Of a stretch of 15,582 bases of DNA, positions 460 to 13,075 are shown in pieces (the first letter of the stretch is position 1; each line of letters begins with the position of its first letter). Location: IMG/VR virus record IMGVR_UViG_3300029888_000066; one strand, written 5' to 3'. The DNA is from a virus (Duplodnaviria; Heunggongvirae; Uroviricota; Caudoviricetes). The notes under the pieces are model-generated. The model had not been told where the DNA came from. It saw only the letters and a list, made by a program, of their open reading frames with translations, and made no database searches. The position numbers were made by a program, and so were the translations under genes.

Positions 460-651
460 TTAAAGACCTGCCGGGATTTCGATATTATCCTGGTGAATAA
501 CTTTATCGACCGGGTAACAGTTACCGGGAATTTTCTGTTCGGTTGCTGCAGTCATACACTCCTGCATTGTCCTGTGAACACTGACTGCAATATCAACTGG
601 CACTCCGGAAACAAGAAAAACTGTCAGAACAAGCGCAAATGCTGAATTCAT
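460..651 (-). CDS. ydfD: YdfD-like small prophage protein, 63 aa
   Basis: Start ATG overlaps the dicB stop in an ATGA arrangement, as recalled for dicB-ydfD; translation MNSAFALVLTVFLVSGVPVD...; is the in-frame tail of ORF 460..705. Confidence 0.6.
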   Translation of the reverse strand: MNSAFALVLTVFLVSGVPVDIAVSVHRTMQECMTAATEQKIPGNCYPVDKVIHQDNIEIPAGL

Positions 652-836
652 TGTGCACATCCTTTTGGCATCAGACGTAAACGAGCCAGCATTGAAACAA
701 TGCATATTTTATTTAATAGCTCCCGTTCTTGTTTTCTCTTGTTAATGGCATCTTCAGTAAATACAGGGTTACTGATAGTGACACCAATTTCAAAACAACC
801 TTCAGACGTATTAACGTTTGGTAATAACGTTTTCAT
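648..836 (-). CDS. dicB: Cell-division inhibitor DicB, 62 aa
   Basis: Last 62 codons of ORF 648..941 translate to MKTLLPNVNTSEGCFEIGVTISNPVFTEDAINKRKQERELLNKICIVSMLARLRLMPKGCAQ, which I recognise as DicB; GAGGA Shine-Dalgarno 7 nt upstream of this ATG. Confidence 0.85.
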   Translation of the reverse strand: MKTLLPNVNTSEGCFEIGVTISNPVFTEDAINKRKQERELLNKICIVSMLARLRLMPKGCAQ

Positions 837-1005: not shown

Positions 1006-1063
1006 AAAAAGGGCGGCAGAGCAGTCACGGAGTAAAACTGATACCGCCAAACGTCACCAGAAA
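1006..1063 (-). ncRNA. dicF: DicF small RNA (ftsZ-targeting sRNA of the dicB operon)
   Basis: Reverse complement reads TTTCTGGTGACGTTTGGCGGTATCAGTTTTACTCCGTGACTGCTCTGCCGCCCTTTTT, matching the DicF sequence as I recall it, ending in a GC stem plus U-run; lies between the ydfB/C-position ORF and dicB on the operon strand. Ends approximate. Confidence 0.75.
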
Positions 1064-1322: not shown

Positions 1323-1898
1323 TTAAGGATTCATTAAGCAATGTCGCAACCACCAATAAATCCGCTTAAGAACATGAAAATTGATTACTGGTATAAAGCT
1401 CTTACAGTTGTTGGCGCTGCGTTGTTTGTCTTTAATGGAACGTCTTTTTTTGACAGATATCCCGTTGTTCCATTGGGTTTTTTGTCCTCCGGCATCTTTT
1501 TTATTGGTTTGGGGGAGTGGATTAATCACCCTCTCATAGTGAGATTTATTGGTCCTGGAGTTTGGACTCGTGGATATAATCGTTCTTCGTGCGCACTCGG
1601 TATCATCTTCGACATACTTGGTTGTTTCCTGATTGTTACAGGAGTCGTCAAGTTCTTCTGATGTAAAACCGCAAATGGGGCACGTAACGGGAATTTTGAA
1701 AAGCGTTTCTCCGGGTTCCAGAACAAAATTTTCTGCGGTCTGATTTTGCTTCTCATATTTGTGCTCCGCGTCATTGTGAGAGCACATTCTTATTCTGAGT
1801 GCCTGTTTAAACTCACTGAAGCTGAGAGCTTCTTCGCCTTCGGCAAGGCCTTCGAAGTATTCTTCGTAAGCCTTTTCCATGATTGTGTCGAAATCCAT
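1323..1898 (-). CDS. ORF in the ydfB/ydfC position of the dicB operon; 5' third looks coding, 3' extent uncertain
   Basis: ATG at 1898-1896 lies 1 nt after the ydfA stop with AGGTGAG upstream; begins MDFDTIMEKAYEEYFEGLAEGEEAL; frame stays open for 191 codons but the distal half is low-complexity and overlaps a plus-strand ORF. Confidence 0.4.
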   Translation of the reverse strand: MDFDTIMEKAYEEYFEGLAEGEEALSFSEFKQALRIRMCSHNDAEHKYEKQNQTAENFVLEPGETLFKIPVTCPICGFTSEELDDSCNNQETTKYVEDDTECARRTIISTSPNSRTNKSHYERVINPLPQTNKKDAGGQKTQWNNGISVKKRRSIKDKQRSANNCKSFIPVINFHVLKRIYWWLRHCLMNP

Positions 1899-1899
1899 A

Positions 1900-2055
1900 T
1901 CACTCACCTGAGTTTCTTTCCAGCCAGCGACGGGCACCATTTTCGGTTTTAAACGTTTTGCTTTTGGTATACGTCATCGCGGTGAACGTGCCGTCCTGGT
2001 TTGGAAACACGCCGTACACCAGAGATTCGTTGTTGCCAAGATCGATAGTATCCAT
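1900..2055 (-). CDS. ydfA: YdfA-like small protein, 51 aa
   Basis: Internal start of ORF 1900..2133; GAGGT 5 nt upstream; translation MDTIDLGNNESLVYGVFPNQDGTFTAMTYTKSKTFKTENGARRWLERNSGE; first gene after dicA on the same strand. Confidence 0.6.
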   Translation of the reverse strand: MDTIDLGNNESLVYGVFPNQDGTFTAMTYTKSKTFKTENGARRWLERNSGE

Positions 2056-2135
2056 GCTGACCTCATTTCCCCTTAACGCTGGGGTAGCGGAACTGTTTGC
2101 TGAGAACACCGTGCGGTGTGTTGATGCAAACAAGA

Positions 2136-2185
2136 TTAGCCATGACTAACATATCGGTCAAGTGATTTTGTATGCTATAGCTAAC
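2136..2185. promoter_or_regulatory. Candidate DicA operator and promoter region for the ydfA-dicF-dicB operon
   Basis: Near-palindrome TTAGCCATGACTAA at 2136-2149 and TAGCTAAC at about 2177-2185 share the TTAG..CTAA half-sites seen between dicA and dicC; located between the dicA stop and ydfA start. Confidence 0.4.
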
Positions 2186-2221
2186 ATAATTGATGTGGTA
2201 AAAGATAACTCATTGATGATG

Positions 2222-2629
2222 TTATCTTTTATTTGTCCGCTGACGGGCTTTTAGTAATTCTTCAAAGAGTTTATTGAAGTTTTTTACTCGAGCTCGCATT
2301 TCGGCGAGCTGGGTATTCTGTTCTGATTCTGGCAGTGCATTAAACAGCTCAAGGAGCTCTAGTTCTTTGGGGGATAAGGCAACTGGCTTCTCAACAGGTG
2401 GTGTTGGTTGCTTGTCTTCATCGCCAAATAGAATCCATGTTGGTGAGCATTGCAATACTTTGCTGAGGGCAAAAAGGTTCTTCCCTGTAGGTTCACTATC
2501 ACCCCGTTCCCATTGTGATACAGACACATGGGAGATTTTCAGGGCTTTAGCAAGAGACCTTTGGGTGTGTTTGAGGTTTTTCCGACGATACCTGATGCGT
2601 TCGCCGATAGTTAAATTTTTTGTTTCCAT
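2222..2629 (-). CDS. dicA: Repressor DicA (XRE-family HTH, cI-like), 135 aa
   Basis: ORF translation METKNLTIGERIRYRRKNLKHTQRSLAKALKISHVSVSQWERGD..., recognised as DicA; divergent from dicC. Confidence 0.9.
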   Translation of the reverse strand: METKNLTIGERIRYRRKNLKHTQRSLAKALKISHVSVSQWERGDSEPTGKNLFALSKVLQCSPTWILFGDEDKQPTPPVEKPVALSPKELELLELFNALPESEQNTQLAEMRARVKNFNKLFEELLKARQRTNKR

Positions 2630-2712
2630 AGTTAGCTAATGCTAAATCGTATTGACTATGTTTTTGTTAACATCTATCTTGTTAGTTATGACTAACAATA
2701 AAGGTGTTTTAA
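2630..2712. promoter_or_regulatory. dicA/dicC divergent control region with two palindromic operator candidates and a rightward promoter
   Basis: TTAGCTAATGCTAA at 2632-2645 and GTTAGTTATGACTAAC at 2681-2696; TTGACT at 2652-2657, 17-nt spacer, TATCTT at 2675-2680 reading toward dicC. Confidence 0.5.
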
Positions 2713-2943
2713 ATGCTTAAAACTGACGCTCTTTTGTATTTCGGTTCAAAAACAAAACTTGCACAAGCAGCAGGTATTCGTTTGGCTTCGCTTTATAGCT
2801 GGAAAGGGGATTTAGTTCCCGAAGGTCGCGCGATGCGTCTACAGGAGGCATCTGGCGGGGAGCTTCAGTATGATCCCAAAGTTTATGATGAATATCGTAA
2901 GACGAAGCGGGCGGGGCGGTTGAACAATGAAAATCACTCCTGA
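2713..2943 (+). CDS. dicC: Cro-like regulator DicC, 76 aa
   Basis: ORF translation MLKTDALLYFGSKTKLAQAAGIRLASLYSWKGDLVPEGRAMRLQEASGGELQYDPKVYDEYRKTKRAGRLNNENHS, recognised as DicC. Confidence 0.85.
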   Translation: MLKTDALLYFGSKTKLAQAAGIRLASLYSWKGDLVPEGRAMRLQEASGGELQYDPKVYDEYRKTKRAGRLNNENHS

Positions 2944-4854: not shown

Positions 4855-6470
4855 AATGTCCCCAGACAATTCTCTGGGGGATTTTTCATGATCAAAGAGA
4901 CTGTTACGATGAGTCATAAGGAACTCCACCGACTTCAGATTATTCAGGAGTCAATTAATCGACATATTACTCAGGAACAAGCTGCGGCACGCATTGGCAT
5001 TTCTATTCGGCAGGTTAAACGTCTGGTGCAACGGTATAGAAATGAAGGGCCTTCTGGTCTGGTTTCCCACCGACGTGGAAAGCGTCCTAATAATTCCTTT
5101 TCTACTGAATTCAGAGCAACAGTAATTTCACTCCTCAAAGGCCGTTACGCTGATTTTGGACCTACGTTTGCGTGCGAAAAATTGCGCGAGATACACGGTT
5201 TATCTTTATCCGTTGAAACTCTCAGAAAGTGGATGATAGAAGAGGGGTTATGGCGTGAACGCCGTCGTAAAATTGCCCGTATATATCAACGCCGCATGCG
5301 ACGACCATCTTACGGTGAACTGATCCAGATTGATGGCTCACCTCATGACTGGTTTGAAAATCGAGGCCCCAGATGTACACTGATCGTTTTCATTGATGAT
5401 GCCACCAGTGCGTTGATGGCGTTGCGTTTTGTGCCTGCTGAAACAACCCGGGCTTACATGGAAACCCTCCGGGGTTACCTTAATGATCATGGCGTACCGC
5501 TCGCTCTCTACTCTGATAGACACAGTATATTCAGGGTAAATAACCCAGAGCGGGAAGGTGAGCTGACCCAGTTCACTCGTGCGATAAAGACACTGGGCAT
5601 CGAGCCAATCCATGCCAACAGCCCGCAGGCAAAAGGGCGGGTAGAGCGCGCCAATCAGACACTACAGGACAGGCTGGTCAAAGAAATGCGGCTTCAGAAT
5701 ATCAGTGATATTGAAACAGCAAATGCATGGTTGCCGACCTTTATTGAAGCCTATAACAAGCGGTTCGCTACGTCGCCTCGTACTACTGATAATGCTCATC
5801 TTGATGTGCACCATTCTGAAGAGGAACTGGGTTATATCTTCAGCCTACAGGCGAAGCGCGTTCTGTCTAAAAATCTCACTTTCCAGTACAAAAGCAGTGC
5901 GTTTCAGGTACGCAGTGAGGGCCGGGGATATCGACTTAGGCATTCGGTTGTTACTGTATGTGAGAACTTTGACGGTGAAATTAACGTTCTGTATGACGGG
6001 AAAGCGCTGGGCTGGGAAAAGTATGTTGATGGCCCGGAGCCTATACCACTGGATGATGAAAAGAGTGTCCATGAACGAGTGGATAATGCCCGTATTGATT
6101 TACGCTCAAAATACTATGTTAAATCTAAAGCTGACCATCCCTGGCTTACGCGCCGAACGCAAAGTCATCAGCAAGTTAAGCCCCCGAAGTTACCTAAAAA
6201 GAAGCCTGATCCCGATAAAATAGATTGAAACCAAGATCGATTCGGTTGAGTGCATATCCATTCATAGGGTAGATTCTTAAGTCGCGTTTCTGGTGTTCAT
6301 TTTCGGGTGGTTTGTTACTTGTTTTACCGGGGATATGCCAGAAACGCGCTGAGTCAGTCTGGGCGGTGCGCGTAATGAGGCGTTATGGTAAATAGCCTAT
6401 GCTAATGTCCGCTAAGAGCAAGAAGCGGAAGTTGGCAGTTTTGTGGACTGTCCCCACAAAAGTGACTACA
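4830..6470 (+). mobile_element. Insertion sequence carrying the DDE transposase; boundaries not resolved
   Basis: Transposase gene plus about 250 bp of non-coding 3' sequence; no clean terminal inverted repeats found by eye, so the ends are approximate. Confidence 0.35.
4888..6228 (+). CDS. DDE (rve-type) transposase, 446 aa, IS481/ISNCY-like with N-terminal HTH
   Basis: MIKETVTMSHKELHRLQIIQESINRHITQEQAAARIGISIRQVKRL (HTH), then an integrase-core pattern with candidate catalytic D (IQIDGSPHDW), D (YSDRHSIF) and E (ERANQTLQDRL); GGGGGA Shine-Dalgarno upstream. Confidence 0.85.
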   Translation: MIKETVTMSHKELHRLQIIQESINRHITQEQAAARIGISIRQVKRLVQRYRNEGPSGLVSHRRGKRPNNSFSTEFRATVISLLKGRYADFGPTFACEKLREIHGLSLSVETLRKWMIEEGLWRERRRKIARIYQRRMRRPSYGELIQIDGSPHDWFENRGPRCTLIVFIDDATSALMALRFVPAETTRAYMETLRGYLNDHGVPLALYSDRHSIFRVNNPEREGELTQFTRAIKTLGIEPIHANSPQAKGRVERANQTLQDRLVKEMRLQNISDIETANAWLPTFIEAYNKRFATSPRTTDNAHLDVHHSEEELGYIFSLQAKRVLSKNLTFQYKSSAFQVRSEGRGYRLRHSVVTVCENFDGEINVLYDGKALGWEKYVDGPEPIPLDDEKSVHERVDNARIDLRSKYYVKSKADHPWLTRRTQSHQQVKPPKLPKKKPDPDKID

Positions 6471-8499: not shown

Positions 8500-8751
8500 A
8501 TGATGAACATCGAAGAACTGCGTAAAATTTTTTGTGAAGATGGCCTCTATGCTGTGTGCGTTGAAAATGGAAATCTTGTTAGTCATTACCGCATTATGTG
8601 TTTGCGAAAGAATGGGGCTGCGTTAATTAATTTTGTGGATGCTCGGGTCACGGACGGATTTATCTTGCGCGAAGGTGAGTTTGTCACTTCATTACAGGCA
8701 TTGAAAGAGATCGGAATAAAAGCTGGCTTTTCTGCTTTTTCAGGAGAATAA
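8500..8751 (+). CDS. rem: Rem, small prophage protein, 83 aa
   Basis: Matches the 83-aa length and position of Rem in Qin-type prophages; MMNIEELRKIFCEDGLYAVCVENGNLVSHYRIMCLRKNG; GGAAGGA Shine-Dalgarno upstream; possible promoter TTGAAG at about 8391. Confidence 0.7.
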   Translation: MMNIEELRKIFCEDGLYAVCVENGNLVSHYRIMCLRKNGAALINFVDARVTDGFILREGEFVTSLQALKEIGIKAGFSAFSGE

Positions 8752-11547: not shown

Positions 11548-11847
11548 AAAAATTCCTTAATACTGATAACTTGGCGCACTATACACACGTTCCTGAAGAA
11601 AGCTATAGTTTTTTGATGGGGTTGAAGATGGCTGGATGTCTAAAATAAACATTGCTTCATATGTTCAACTATGCGTTAATGATTGCGTCGGTTTGAAGAA
11701 CAGACGATATACGAAGTAGTTTACTAAAGCAGTTCTCATTTCAGGTGTTATTCACTTATTCCTTCTTTGAGTCTCTCCAATTAAGTACGAAGTCGTTTCT
11801 GTTATGCAAACCATTTATGCCGAAAGGCTCAAGTTAAGGAATGTAGA

Positions 11848-12063
11848 ATGTCAAATAAAATGACTGGTTTAGTAAAATGGTTTAACGCTGATAAAGGTTT
11901 CGGCTTTATTTCTCCTGTTGATGGTAGTAAAGATGTGTTTGTGCATTTTTCTGCGATTCAGAATGATAATTATCGAACCTTATTTGAAGGTCAAAAGGTT
12001 ACCTTCTCTATAGAGAGTGGTGCTAAAGGTCCTGCAGCAGCAAATGTCATCATTACTGATTAA
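11848..12063 (+). CDS. cspB: Cold-shock protein CspB, 71 aa
   Basis: Translation [71 protein letters not shown]; long 5' leader (about 300 nt) typical of csp genes. Confidence 0.9.
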
Positions 12064-12334
12064 AATTCATCGCTCGTCTGTATACGATAACGAAGAAGGC
12101 TGATGCCTGAGTAGAGATACGGACAGAGTAGTGAATATTGGATCTCTTTAATAAAAAGTAAGGAGGTCCAATACATGAAACAATGGCTAGCATATTTGGC
12201 AAAATCTTAATCAGGAAAAGTATGCTAACCATTGTGGTGAAGTGCAGGTTTGCTGCATGAATAGTTTTACAGCAGAAGCTAACTGCTGGCATGGCAAAAC
12301 AAAGTGCGTAAGTGGATGACTCCCACAAAAAGCA

Positions 12335-13075
12335 CCACAATCTCAAACCCGCTCAGGCGGGTTTTTTATTGTGCACAGAAAACCCCCAGCTAGGCTGGGG
12401 GTTCCGGAAAGCTTTCAGCTTTAAGCCAGTTATTAAAACCCCTTTTGATTTGTTAAAACACCTTGCGGTCTGGCAACTGCAAGTGTCAAACAAGAAATCA
12501 AAAGGGGGTCCCAATGGGGAACGAAAAGAGCTTAGCGCACACCCGATGGAACTGTAAATATCACATAGTATTTGCGCCAAAATACCGAAGACAGGTGTTC
12601 TACAGAGAGAAGCGTAGAGCAATAGGCTGTATTTTGAGAAAGCTGTGTGAGTGGAAAAGTGTACGGATTCTGGAAGCTGAATGCTGTGCAGATCATATCC
12701 ATATGCTTGTGGAGATCCCGCCCAAAATGAGCGTATCAGGCTTTATGGGATATCTGAAAGGGAAAAGCAGTCTGATGCCTTACGAGCAGTTTGGTGATTT
12801 GAAATTCAAATACAGGAACAGGGAGTTCTGGTGCAGAGGGTATTACGTCGATACGGTGGGTAAGAACACGGCGAAGATACAGGATTACATAAAGCACCAG
12901 CTTGAAGAGGATAAAATGGGAGAGCAGTTATCGATTCCCTATCCGGGCAGCCCGTTTACGGGCCGTAAGTAACGAAGTTGGATGCAAATGTCAGATCGTG
13001 TGCGCCTGTTAGGGCGCGGCTGGTAAGAGAGCCTTACAGGCGCATTTGAAAAACCTCCGGCTATGCCGGAGGATA
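12335..13075 (+). mobile_element. IS200 (IS200/IS605 family), about 0.7 kb; ends approximate within about 40 bp
   Basis: tnpA preceded by the characteristic left-end structures: terminator-like hairpin 12345-12367, perfect 8-bp hairpin 12383-12401, and a long-range stem (CCCCTTTTGATTT 12439-12451 pairing with AAATCAAAAGGGG 12496-12508) that sequesters the tnpA Shine-Dalgarno. Confidence 0.7.
12514..12972 (+). CDS. tnpA: IS200 transposase TnpA (HUH/Y1 type), 152 aa
   Basis: MGNEKSLAHTRWNCKYHIVFAPKYRRQVFYREKRRAIGCILRKLCEWKSVRILEAECCADHIHMLVEIPPKMSVSGFMGYLKG..., recognised as IS200 TnpA (HxH motif in CADHIHML); track ORF 12463 is an upstream TTG extension. Confidence 0.9.
   Translation: MGNEKSLAHTRWNCKYHIVFAPKYRRQVFYREKRRAIGCILRKLCEWKSVRILEAECCADHIHMLVEIPPKMSVSGFMGYLKGKSSLMPYEQFGDLKFKYRNREFWCRGYYVDTVGKNTAKIQDYIKHQLEEDKMGEQLSIPYPGSPFTGRK

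Follow-up and report, generated by a model that had tools for sequence, protein, structure and literature searches.

Palindromes around dicA as probable operators of a P22-type immunity region in a Qin-like prophage

Here we report an analysis of the dicA/dicC locus on a 15,582-bp stretch of viral DNA (IMG/VR record IMGVR_UViG_3300029888_000066; Caudoviricetes), the whole of which is referred to below as the window. A preliminary description, made from the sequence alone, had noted three operator-like palindromes with TTAG..CTAA half-sites around dicA and had proposed a cI/cro-like switch in which DicA represses both dicC and the dicB operon. We are highly confident that the locus is the P22-type immunity region of a Qin-like prophage and, taking the explanation as a whole together with the mechanism set out in the Discussion, that the three palindromes are the cores of its operators.

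Results

The repressor gene dicA lies between dicC, from which it diverges across a spacer of 83 bp, and the dicB operon, in which the DicF RNA and dicB follow downstream of ydfA (Table 1). In Pfam, DicA has only helix-turn-helix (HTH) type domains (residues 8-74), followed by a short helical C-terminus, and residues 7-71 match the DNA-binding domain of the P22 C2 repressor (PDB 1adr/2r1j, E ~1e-19). A search of complete E. coli genomes showed that positions 1880-2960 of the window are 99.7% identical over 1,081 bp to the K-12 derivatives C600 and ER1709, in which the matching genes are annotated as DicA, DicC and YdfA. Both intergenic regions are identical base for base to those of C600, and all three palindromes are identical to K-12.

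The palindromes, read as TTAGCTAATGCTAA (2632-2645), GTTAGTTATGACTAAC (2681-2696) and TTAGCCATGACTAA (2136-2149), share the pattern TTAG-N6-CTAA (TTAGNNNNNNCTAA), which has exactly three matches when both strands of the whole window are searched. In 200 dinucleotide-preserving shuffles the mean number of matches was 0.17 and the maximum two, with three never reached. All three matches fall within two regulatory spacers and lie where the preliminary description had placed them, the first two within the 83 bp between dicA and dicC and the third in the interval from the dicA stop codon to the start of ydfA. Allowing one mismatch added two unrelated matches, no more than expected by chance, and a looser pattern, TTHG-N6-CDAA, modelled on the published DicC motif, produced no extra sites in a scan of the window. 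The hexamer TGTTAG by itself is not over-represented in the window (7 observed, 7.1 expected); the significance is confined to its dyad arrangement.

Closer reading shows the palindromes to be the cores of operators of 18-20 bp with the form TGTTAG-N6-CTAACA, which we refer to as Oa (first palindrome, dicA-proximal), Oc (second palindrome, dicC-proximal) and OB1 (third palindrome, proximal to dicBp, the promoter of the dicB operon). An inverted-repeat scan found the second palindrome at the centre of a longer dyad and a further palindrome at 2165-2190. A symmetrised 18-bp operator matrix built from 24 distinct strong sites in relatives gave its four highest scores in the window to Oc (2680-2697, 27.4 bits), OB1 (26.8 bits), a site that we call OB2 (13.4 bits) and Oa (10.7 bits), the next match scoring 4.1 bits; in 200 simulated windows the best score averaged 5.7 and reached at most 14.8. 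With a degenerate middle site, Om, included, the operator centres in the dicA-dicC spacer (2688.5, 2663.5 and 2638.5) follow one another at 25 bp, and those at dicBp (2177.5 and 2142.5) at 35 bp. All three palindromes of the preliminary description are thus present, in a set of four to five sites of which it had overlooked OB2 and Om.

Table 1. Coordinates of genes, promoters and operators at the dicA locus (positions in the window)
Feature	Position	Strand	Description
dicB	648-836	-	Downstream of ydfA
DicF RNA	1011-1062	-	76.7 bits; downstream of ydfA
ydfA	1900-2055	-	DUF1391, E=1.7e-28; first gene of the dicB operon
dicBp (PL equivalent)	2133-2161	-	Direct reading: -35 TTGACC 2161..2156, 17-nt spacer, -10 TAATCT 2138..2133
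OB1	2134-2151	.	dicBp-proximal operator TGTTAGTCATGGCTAATC (dicA-sense strand), core 2136-2149
OB2	2169-2186	.	dicBp-distal operator TGTTAGCTATAGCATACA (dicA-sense strand); left half perfect, right half imperfect
Inverted repeat	2199-2231	-	11-bp perfect repeat, TAAAAGATAAC / GTTATCTTTTA, across the dicA stop codon
dicA	2222-2629	-	135 aa; Pfam HTH_3, E=1.3e-16; open reading frame and E. coli genome match
dicA promoter core/start (PRM equivalent)	2629-2644	-	Candidate -10 TAGCAT 2644..2639, inside Oa; hexamer inferred from sequence
Oa	2630-2647	.	dicA-proximal operator ATTTAGCATTAGCTAACT (dicA-sense strand), core 2632-2645
dicCp (PR equivalent)	2652-2680	+	Promoter scan: -35 TTGACT 2652-2657, 17-nt spacer, -10 TATCTT 2675-2680
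Om	2655-2672	.	Degenerate middle operator TGTTAACAAAAACATAGT (dicA-sense strand); centre 25 bp from Oc and from Oa
Oc	2679-2698	.	dicC-proximal 20-bp inverted repeat TTGTTAGTTATGACTAACAA, core TTAG-N6-CTAA 2682-2695
dicC	2713-2943	+	76-aa Cro-like protein; Pfam P22_Cro, E=1.7e-11

Within the dicA-dicC spacer, Oc spans -8..+12 of the dicC promoter, dicCp, and is the reverse complement of the published operator 5'TTGTTAGTCATAACTAACAA (PMC3441716). The start of dicCp falls at 2687 by the published rule that the -11 A of TATCTT lies 11 nt before the start (mapped by 5' rapid amplification of cDNA ends, PMC3441716), which bears out the earlier observation that this palindrome overlaps the start region of the dicC promoter. 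Om overlaps the -35 and the spacer of dicCp at the position of P22 OR2. We considered it as a real third operator but regard it as decayed: the matrix scan places it only 50th, and the overlapping dicCp confounds any reading of its conservation. In the DicA immunity type Om is probably not a functional repressor site, its invariance being due to the overlapping dicC promoter.

At the other end of the spacer, Oa runs up to one base before the dicA ATG, abutting the start codon where P22 has OR3, and its centre and flanks are deviant, with 5 of 18 positions off consensus. We infer from the name that the Oa of the literature is this site, which matches the operator published from sequence alone. 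No Shine-Dalgarno sequence precedes dicA, which fits a published leaderless transcript starting 0-9 nt from the ATG at 2629, dicA being one of five E. coli mRNAs with a leader of under 10 nt in differential RNA sequencing (PMC4681348). The palindrome at Oa is operator-like, as first described, although by its position it controls dicA rather than dicC. At the far end of the gene, the inverted repeat across the dicA stop codon is probably the dicA terminator, separating dicBp from dicA read-through.

The promoter scanner predicted neither dicBp nor the dicA promoter; the hexamers of both were read by eye and are supported by collinearity with P22. On the dicA-sense strand dicBp reads CAC-TTGACC-GATATGTTAGTCATGGC-TAATCT towards ydfA, dicF and dicB, its -35 CTTGACC being invariant in 39 distinct sequences and its -10 varying only as TAA[TC][CAT]T. 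OB1 fills the spacer of this promoter and overlaps the -10, as OL1 does inside P22 PL, and OB2 is centred 35 bp upstream of OB1 as the equivalent of OL2. The TGTTAG of OB2, whose flanks are variable, itself has a single variable column, of low frequency, and in three relatives (L012, L013 and L104) both halves of the site at this position are perfect. By comparison with P22, these positions support the earlier proposal that the palindrome between dicA and ydfA is the operon operator, and mark OB1 as the predicted operator of the dicB operon.

Between dicBp and ydfA, the leader of the ydfA-dicB operon (2056-2125, minus strand) is conserved even where the operators and repressors of relatives differ. 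Its elements, at 2106-2119, 2087-2093 and 2069-2084, are a small hairpin (ACACC-GCAC-GGTGT), an invariant GTTCCGC and a second hairpin (CCCC-AGCGTTAA-GGGG) that shows a few compensatory changes. The leader occupies the position of nutL in P22 and lambda.

Conservation was assessed in 95 related loci plus annotated phages and strains, 75 of which could be aligned over the whole regulatory region and represent 52 distinct haplotypes. None of the 24 TTAG/CTAA core columns is variable among these haplotypes, compared with 70 of the 249 intergenic columns (hypergeometric P = 2e-4), and the inner operator columns, of which 8 of 18 vary, do so always as Y-Y-A-T-R-R. The half-sites of OB1 are invariant between variable flanks, and Oa is invariant in all 52 haplotypes. 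Two deep clades account for most of the nucleotide-diversity signal at the operator centres, which does not clearly exceed that of synonymous sites.

Beyond the K-12 type, the operators change with the recognition helix of the adjacent repressor. Each of four helix types is paired with its own operator type, the positions being the same: ISHVSVSQWE with TTAG-YYATRR-CTAA (K-12 type); VAHVTISQWE with TTAG-R....Y-CTAA (PPompW, a Rac-type phage, E. albertii, E. ruysiae and strain EC2257); VS(G/D)SSISLWE with TTGAG-N4-CTCAA; and (K/R)SSVSVFKWE with TAAC-N4-GTTA. Loci of the VAHVTISQWE type have two sites in the spacer. Downstream, two further perfect sites 35-36 bp apart are present in E. albertii, E. 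ruysiae and EC2257, and one perfect and one one-mismatch site in PPompW; the Rac record ends before that region. Operators therefore appear to co-evolve with the recognition helix of the repressor, as expected of a modular immunity specificity, and the preliminary description's expectation that the sites would be conserved in related immunity regions is borne out in the manner expected of operators, with invariant half-sites that co-vary with the helix.

Several finer patterns were seen among these loci. The fifth base of the TTAG-N6-CTAA pattern is always a purine and the tenth always a pyrimidine in the VAHVTISQWE relatives (L005, L006, L010, L012, L013 and L104), and the reverse holds for the K-12 type ISHVSVSQWE, with a pyrimidine at the fifth base and a purine at the tenth; the fifth half-site base is thus a candidate for a single-position determinant of immunity specificity. 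Among near-identical Qin-type prophages (loci L023-L096), the inner positions 5, 6, 9 and 10 of Oc and OB1 flip between pyrimidine/purine combinations, giving eight different YYATRR centres at Oc (inner bases 2686-2691) and at least six at OB1 (2140-2145) around constant TTAG and CTAA. These flips could reflect affinity tuning or exchange between operators. Three DicA-type loci (L009, L014 and L015), 99% or 57% identical to enterobacterial ones, were found on short contigs of metagenome-assembled genomes labelled Collinsella, Bacillota and Veillonella, and are most likely binning contamination by enterobacterial prophage DNA.

Discussion

The cI/cro-like picture of the dic locus and its operators were already known. 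The dic system and this reading of it have reportedly been described since 1986-88, by Bejar et al. in 1986 and 1988 and by Cam in 1988. The picture was revisited in 2012, 2020, 2023 and 2024. Binding of DicA to Oc, through which it represses dicC, was shown in vivo by Yun et al. (2012, PMC3441716), who found that a single A-to-C change in Oc abolishes both DicA binding and repression, that deletion of dicA abolishes Oc-dependent repression and that the cloned Oc site causes titration toxicity. In the same work DicA at Oc was reported to activate the weak dicA promoter. Reg-Seq recovered the DicA site on dicCp (PMC7567609), which a later preprint places at -8..+12. Repression by DicA extends to dicBp, upstream of ydfA, and DicA and DicC together make a bistable CI/Cro-like pair, in a system that is induced by Rem, the DicA antirepressor, rather than by RecA (Ragunathan et al. 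2023, PMC10448788). Pan et al. 2019 contains no binding data. The switch proposed in the preliminary description, with DicA repressing both dicC and the dicB operon, therefore agrees with published experiments.

For DicC, chromatin immunoprecipitation followed by sequencing (ChIP-seq) placed the strongest peaks on either side of dicA, with a palindromic motif TT(A/C/T)G...C(G/A/T)AA, and induction of DicC repressed dicA 48-84-fold (bioRxiv 10.1101/2024.09.21.614188). A weak DicC peak has also been published upstream of dicF, for which our exact, one-mismatch, relaxed (TTHG-N6-CDAA) and matrix scans found no site near 1062-1400.

From these data and the arrangement of the sites we propose the following mechanism. 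DicA, presumably as a dimer, would bind 18-bp dyads of the form TGTTAG-YYATRR-CTAACA. At Oc it would cover the -10 and +1 of dicCp, blocking dicC and, per Yun et al., stimulating the weak leaderless dicA promoter. At OB1, across the spacer and -10 of dicBp and helped by the weaker OB2, it would occlude the promoter and so silence ydfA, dicF and dicB; direct contact of DicA with OB1 and OB2 is suggested by the sequence of the sites and by the DicC ChIP-seq. Oa, lying on the dicA -10 and start, may serve as an OR3-like switch-off of dicA by DicC or by excess DicA, and Rem would relieve DicA repression. In the window the rem gene of the published antirepressor (PMC10448788) is intact at 8500-8751 (plus strand), so that the whole repressor/antirepressor module is present.

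A number of observations weigh against this account. According to Yun et al., who cite Bejar et al. 1988, Om and Oa had been identified from nucleotide sequence alone, and neither bound DicA when assayed in vivo in that study (data not shown; PMC3441716), so that at least one of the three palindromes may not be a DicA site alone. The invariance of Oa and Om may in part stem from the promoters that overlap them rather than from protein binding. At dicBp, Reg-Seq lists the DicA site for dicB as low-evidence with its location unknown (PMC7567609), the -10 TAATCT is weak, with a hexamer score below the threshold of the scanner, and we found no mapped transcription start in the literature, the predicted one being at about 2126.

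The first two of these points bear on an alternative in which only Oc and OB1 bind protein and Oa owes its conservation solely to containing the dicA core promoter and the 5' end of a leaderless mRNA. Reg-Seq found a single repressor site on dicCp (PMC7567609), DicA did not bind Oa in vivo, and the overlap of Oa with the candidate dicA -10 and start would be enough alone to explain its invariance. However, the relatives whose repressors are 56-73% identical to DicA have a changed sequence in the place of Oa (TTAGAATTACCTAA, TTAGCATAAGCTAA) and yet in them TTAG-N6-CTAA remains equally far from the ATG. A bona fide operator, OR3 of P22, occupies exactly this position, and the spacer that holds Oa has the strongest DicC ChIP-seq peak with a matching motif, in keeping with the strong repression of dicA by DicC. 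We consider it unlikely that Oa is a promoter element only. The lack of DicA binding, together with the deviant centre and flanks of Oa, fits a low-affinity OR3-type site and does not contradict the proposed operator model; Oa is more likely the site on the DicC (Cro) side that shuts off dicA.

It is very improbable that the palindromes are read primarily by host factors, such as the TetR-family protein YjdC or a Cnu/H-NS complex, instead of DicA and DicC. YjdC is enriched at the dic locus by chromatin immunoprecipitation with quantitative PCR and shows genetic interactions with dicA and dicC (PMC9283627), and CnuK9E/H-NS antagonises DicA at Oc (PMC3441716). Co-variation of the operators with the helix of the adjacent prophage repressor, seen across several genera, would be unexpected for a site read by the host, and the Oc-dependent repression is lost when dicA is deleted (PMC3441716).

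There is a negligible likelihood that the palindromes arose by chance in AT-rich intergenic DNA or act as RNA hairpins or terminators: their stems are short and AT-rich and the one-mismatch motif occurs at chance frequency, but no shuffle reached three exact matches, all of which fall in two regulatory spacers with half-sites invariant amid variable flanks. The hairpin or terminator reading was also rejected because transcription starts inside or downstream of the dyads, at 2687 for dicC, 2629-2638 for dicA and a predicted site at about 2126 for dicBp, so that none of these transcripts contains its full palindrome.

The operator model can be extended to a more specific combined account, which we offer tentatively and would not expect to hold in all its parts. 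The dicBp operator would be an OL1/OL2-like pair (2134-2151 and 2169-2186); Oa would be OR3-like and used mainly by DicC, hence not bound by DicA alone; and the fifth base, Y with ISHVSVSQWE and R with VAHVTISQWE, would separate two otherwise operator-compatible immunity types, with the inner Y/Y..R/R flips tuning affinity among Qin-type prophages.

The results hold nothing conceptually new; the gain is modest and lies in the base-pair placement of the dicBp operators and in comparative evidence on which operator bases matter. The operators set the bistable DicA/DicC switch, and recognising them means that the window is annotated correctly as a Qin-type immunity region. To the known picture we add three small increments, namely a bipartite dicBp operator placed to the base pair, Oa read as an OR3-like site, and a fifth half-site base, Y or R, that differs between two DicA immunity types.

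Outside the immunity region the window holds further genes and RNAs. The ydfB gene is truncated and fused into an open reading frame of 205 aa with a Cys-rich segment (1323-1940, minus strand), which resembles a 212-aa hypothetical gene of E. coli O26, and a hydrophobic open reading frame of 106 aa lies on the opposite strand (1341-1661, plus). Among the replication-region genes is a full-length transposase open reading frame of 446 aa (4888-6228, plus strand); relatives have truncated copies of it, annotated as IS1202-like ISEsa1 or ISNCY family transposase, or, in some cases, QueH and a KwaB-like (Kiwa) gene in its place. In the late part of the prophage, Rfam identified a cspA-type thermoregulator 5' untranslated region (11687-12079, 158.8 bits), the Hfq-binding small RNA STnc490 (12381-12504, 146.1 bits) and a tRNA (14978-15051, 52.1 bits), all on the plus strand.

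Comparison with known systems places the locus first of all beside K-12 Qin, which is the same element: dicA, dicC, ydfA and both promoters are identical or nearly so, and the flanks alone differ, the regulatory region being without differences. Downstream of dicC the window carries an intact YdaT-like gene along with replication genes, where K-12 Qin has ydfX/ydfW remnants; the truncated or fused state of ydfB and the absence of ydfC are further differences from K-12 Qin. The window is a less decayed Qin-type prophage of another strain.

The immC region (c2/cro) of P22 has the same gene order and orientation as dicA/dicC, and the window has the features of an immunity region of this type, with divergent genes for an HTH repressor and a Cro, dyads in the spacer over both promoters and the same motif at an OL/PL-like promoter. 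The divergent spacer is 80 bp in P22 and 83 bp in the window, each with three 18-bp operator positions whose centres are spaced by 23/25 bp in P22 and by 25/25 bp in the window. P22 OR3 (ATTTAAGATGACTTAACT) and Oa both end one base before the repressor ATG, and the RM transcript of P22 has its annotated start 4 nt before the c2 ATG, inside OR3, the dicA mRNA likewise having a very short leader or none. At the leftward promoter, P22 PL reads CAC-TTGACC-17 nt-TAAATT, in a context (CACTTGACC) common to dicBp, where OL1 occupies the spacer and OL2 is 35 bp upstream, so that dicBp with OB1 and OB2 has the same geometry and partly the same sequence. On this collinearity the counterparts of OR1, OR2 and OR3 are Oc, Om and Oa, and those of OL1 and OL2 are OB1 and OB2. 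The N-terminal domain of DicA is 59% identical to that of P22 C2. The systems differ in the half-site, which is TGTTAG(Y) in the DicA type and ATTTAAG in P22, and in the number of operators, the middle operator of the window being decayed and an equivalent of OL3 lacking (P22 has OL1-OL3).

Lambda CI and P22 C2 have an S24/LexA-type C-terminus with an Ala-Gly cleavage site that provides RecA-dependent induction and cooperative oligomerisation. DicA has no such cleavage domain: it is only 135 aa long, its matches to C2 stop at residue ~71 and Pfam finds HTH domains only, and it is therefore not placed among the CI/C2-type repressors. DicA is a short, antirepressor-controlled repressor that is like P22 C2 at the DNA level and lies outside the LexA-like autocleavable family.

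The logic of lambda CI/Cro is the same, with divergent repressor and Cro genes, common operators and repression of rightward and leftward early promoters. Both switches are bistable, with a repressor that stimulates production of its leaderless transcript and a Cro that shuts down the repressor promoter. In contrast, there is no homology of operator or protein sequence beyond the HTH fold, and the dic locus has fewer functional sites, a distance between its OR and OL equivalents of ~0.55 kb compared with 2.3 kb in lambda, and no RecA-dependent cleavage.

Further parallels are the modules of PPompW/Stx-phage dicA, of a Rac-type prophage ('dicA', MN652886) and of Cronobacter phage phiES15, whose repressors have the same 135-aa architecture at 51-63% identity. 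In these modules the same four positions hold dyad operators, with the same ydfA-type leader downstream; the differences lie in the inner operator bases (TTAG-R...Y-CTAA) or in the half-sites (TTGAG-N4-CTCAA, TAAC-N4-GTTA). Since these operator changes match different recognition helices, the modules presumably represent other immunity specificities.

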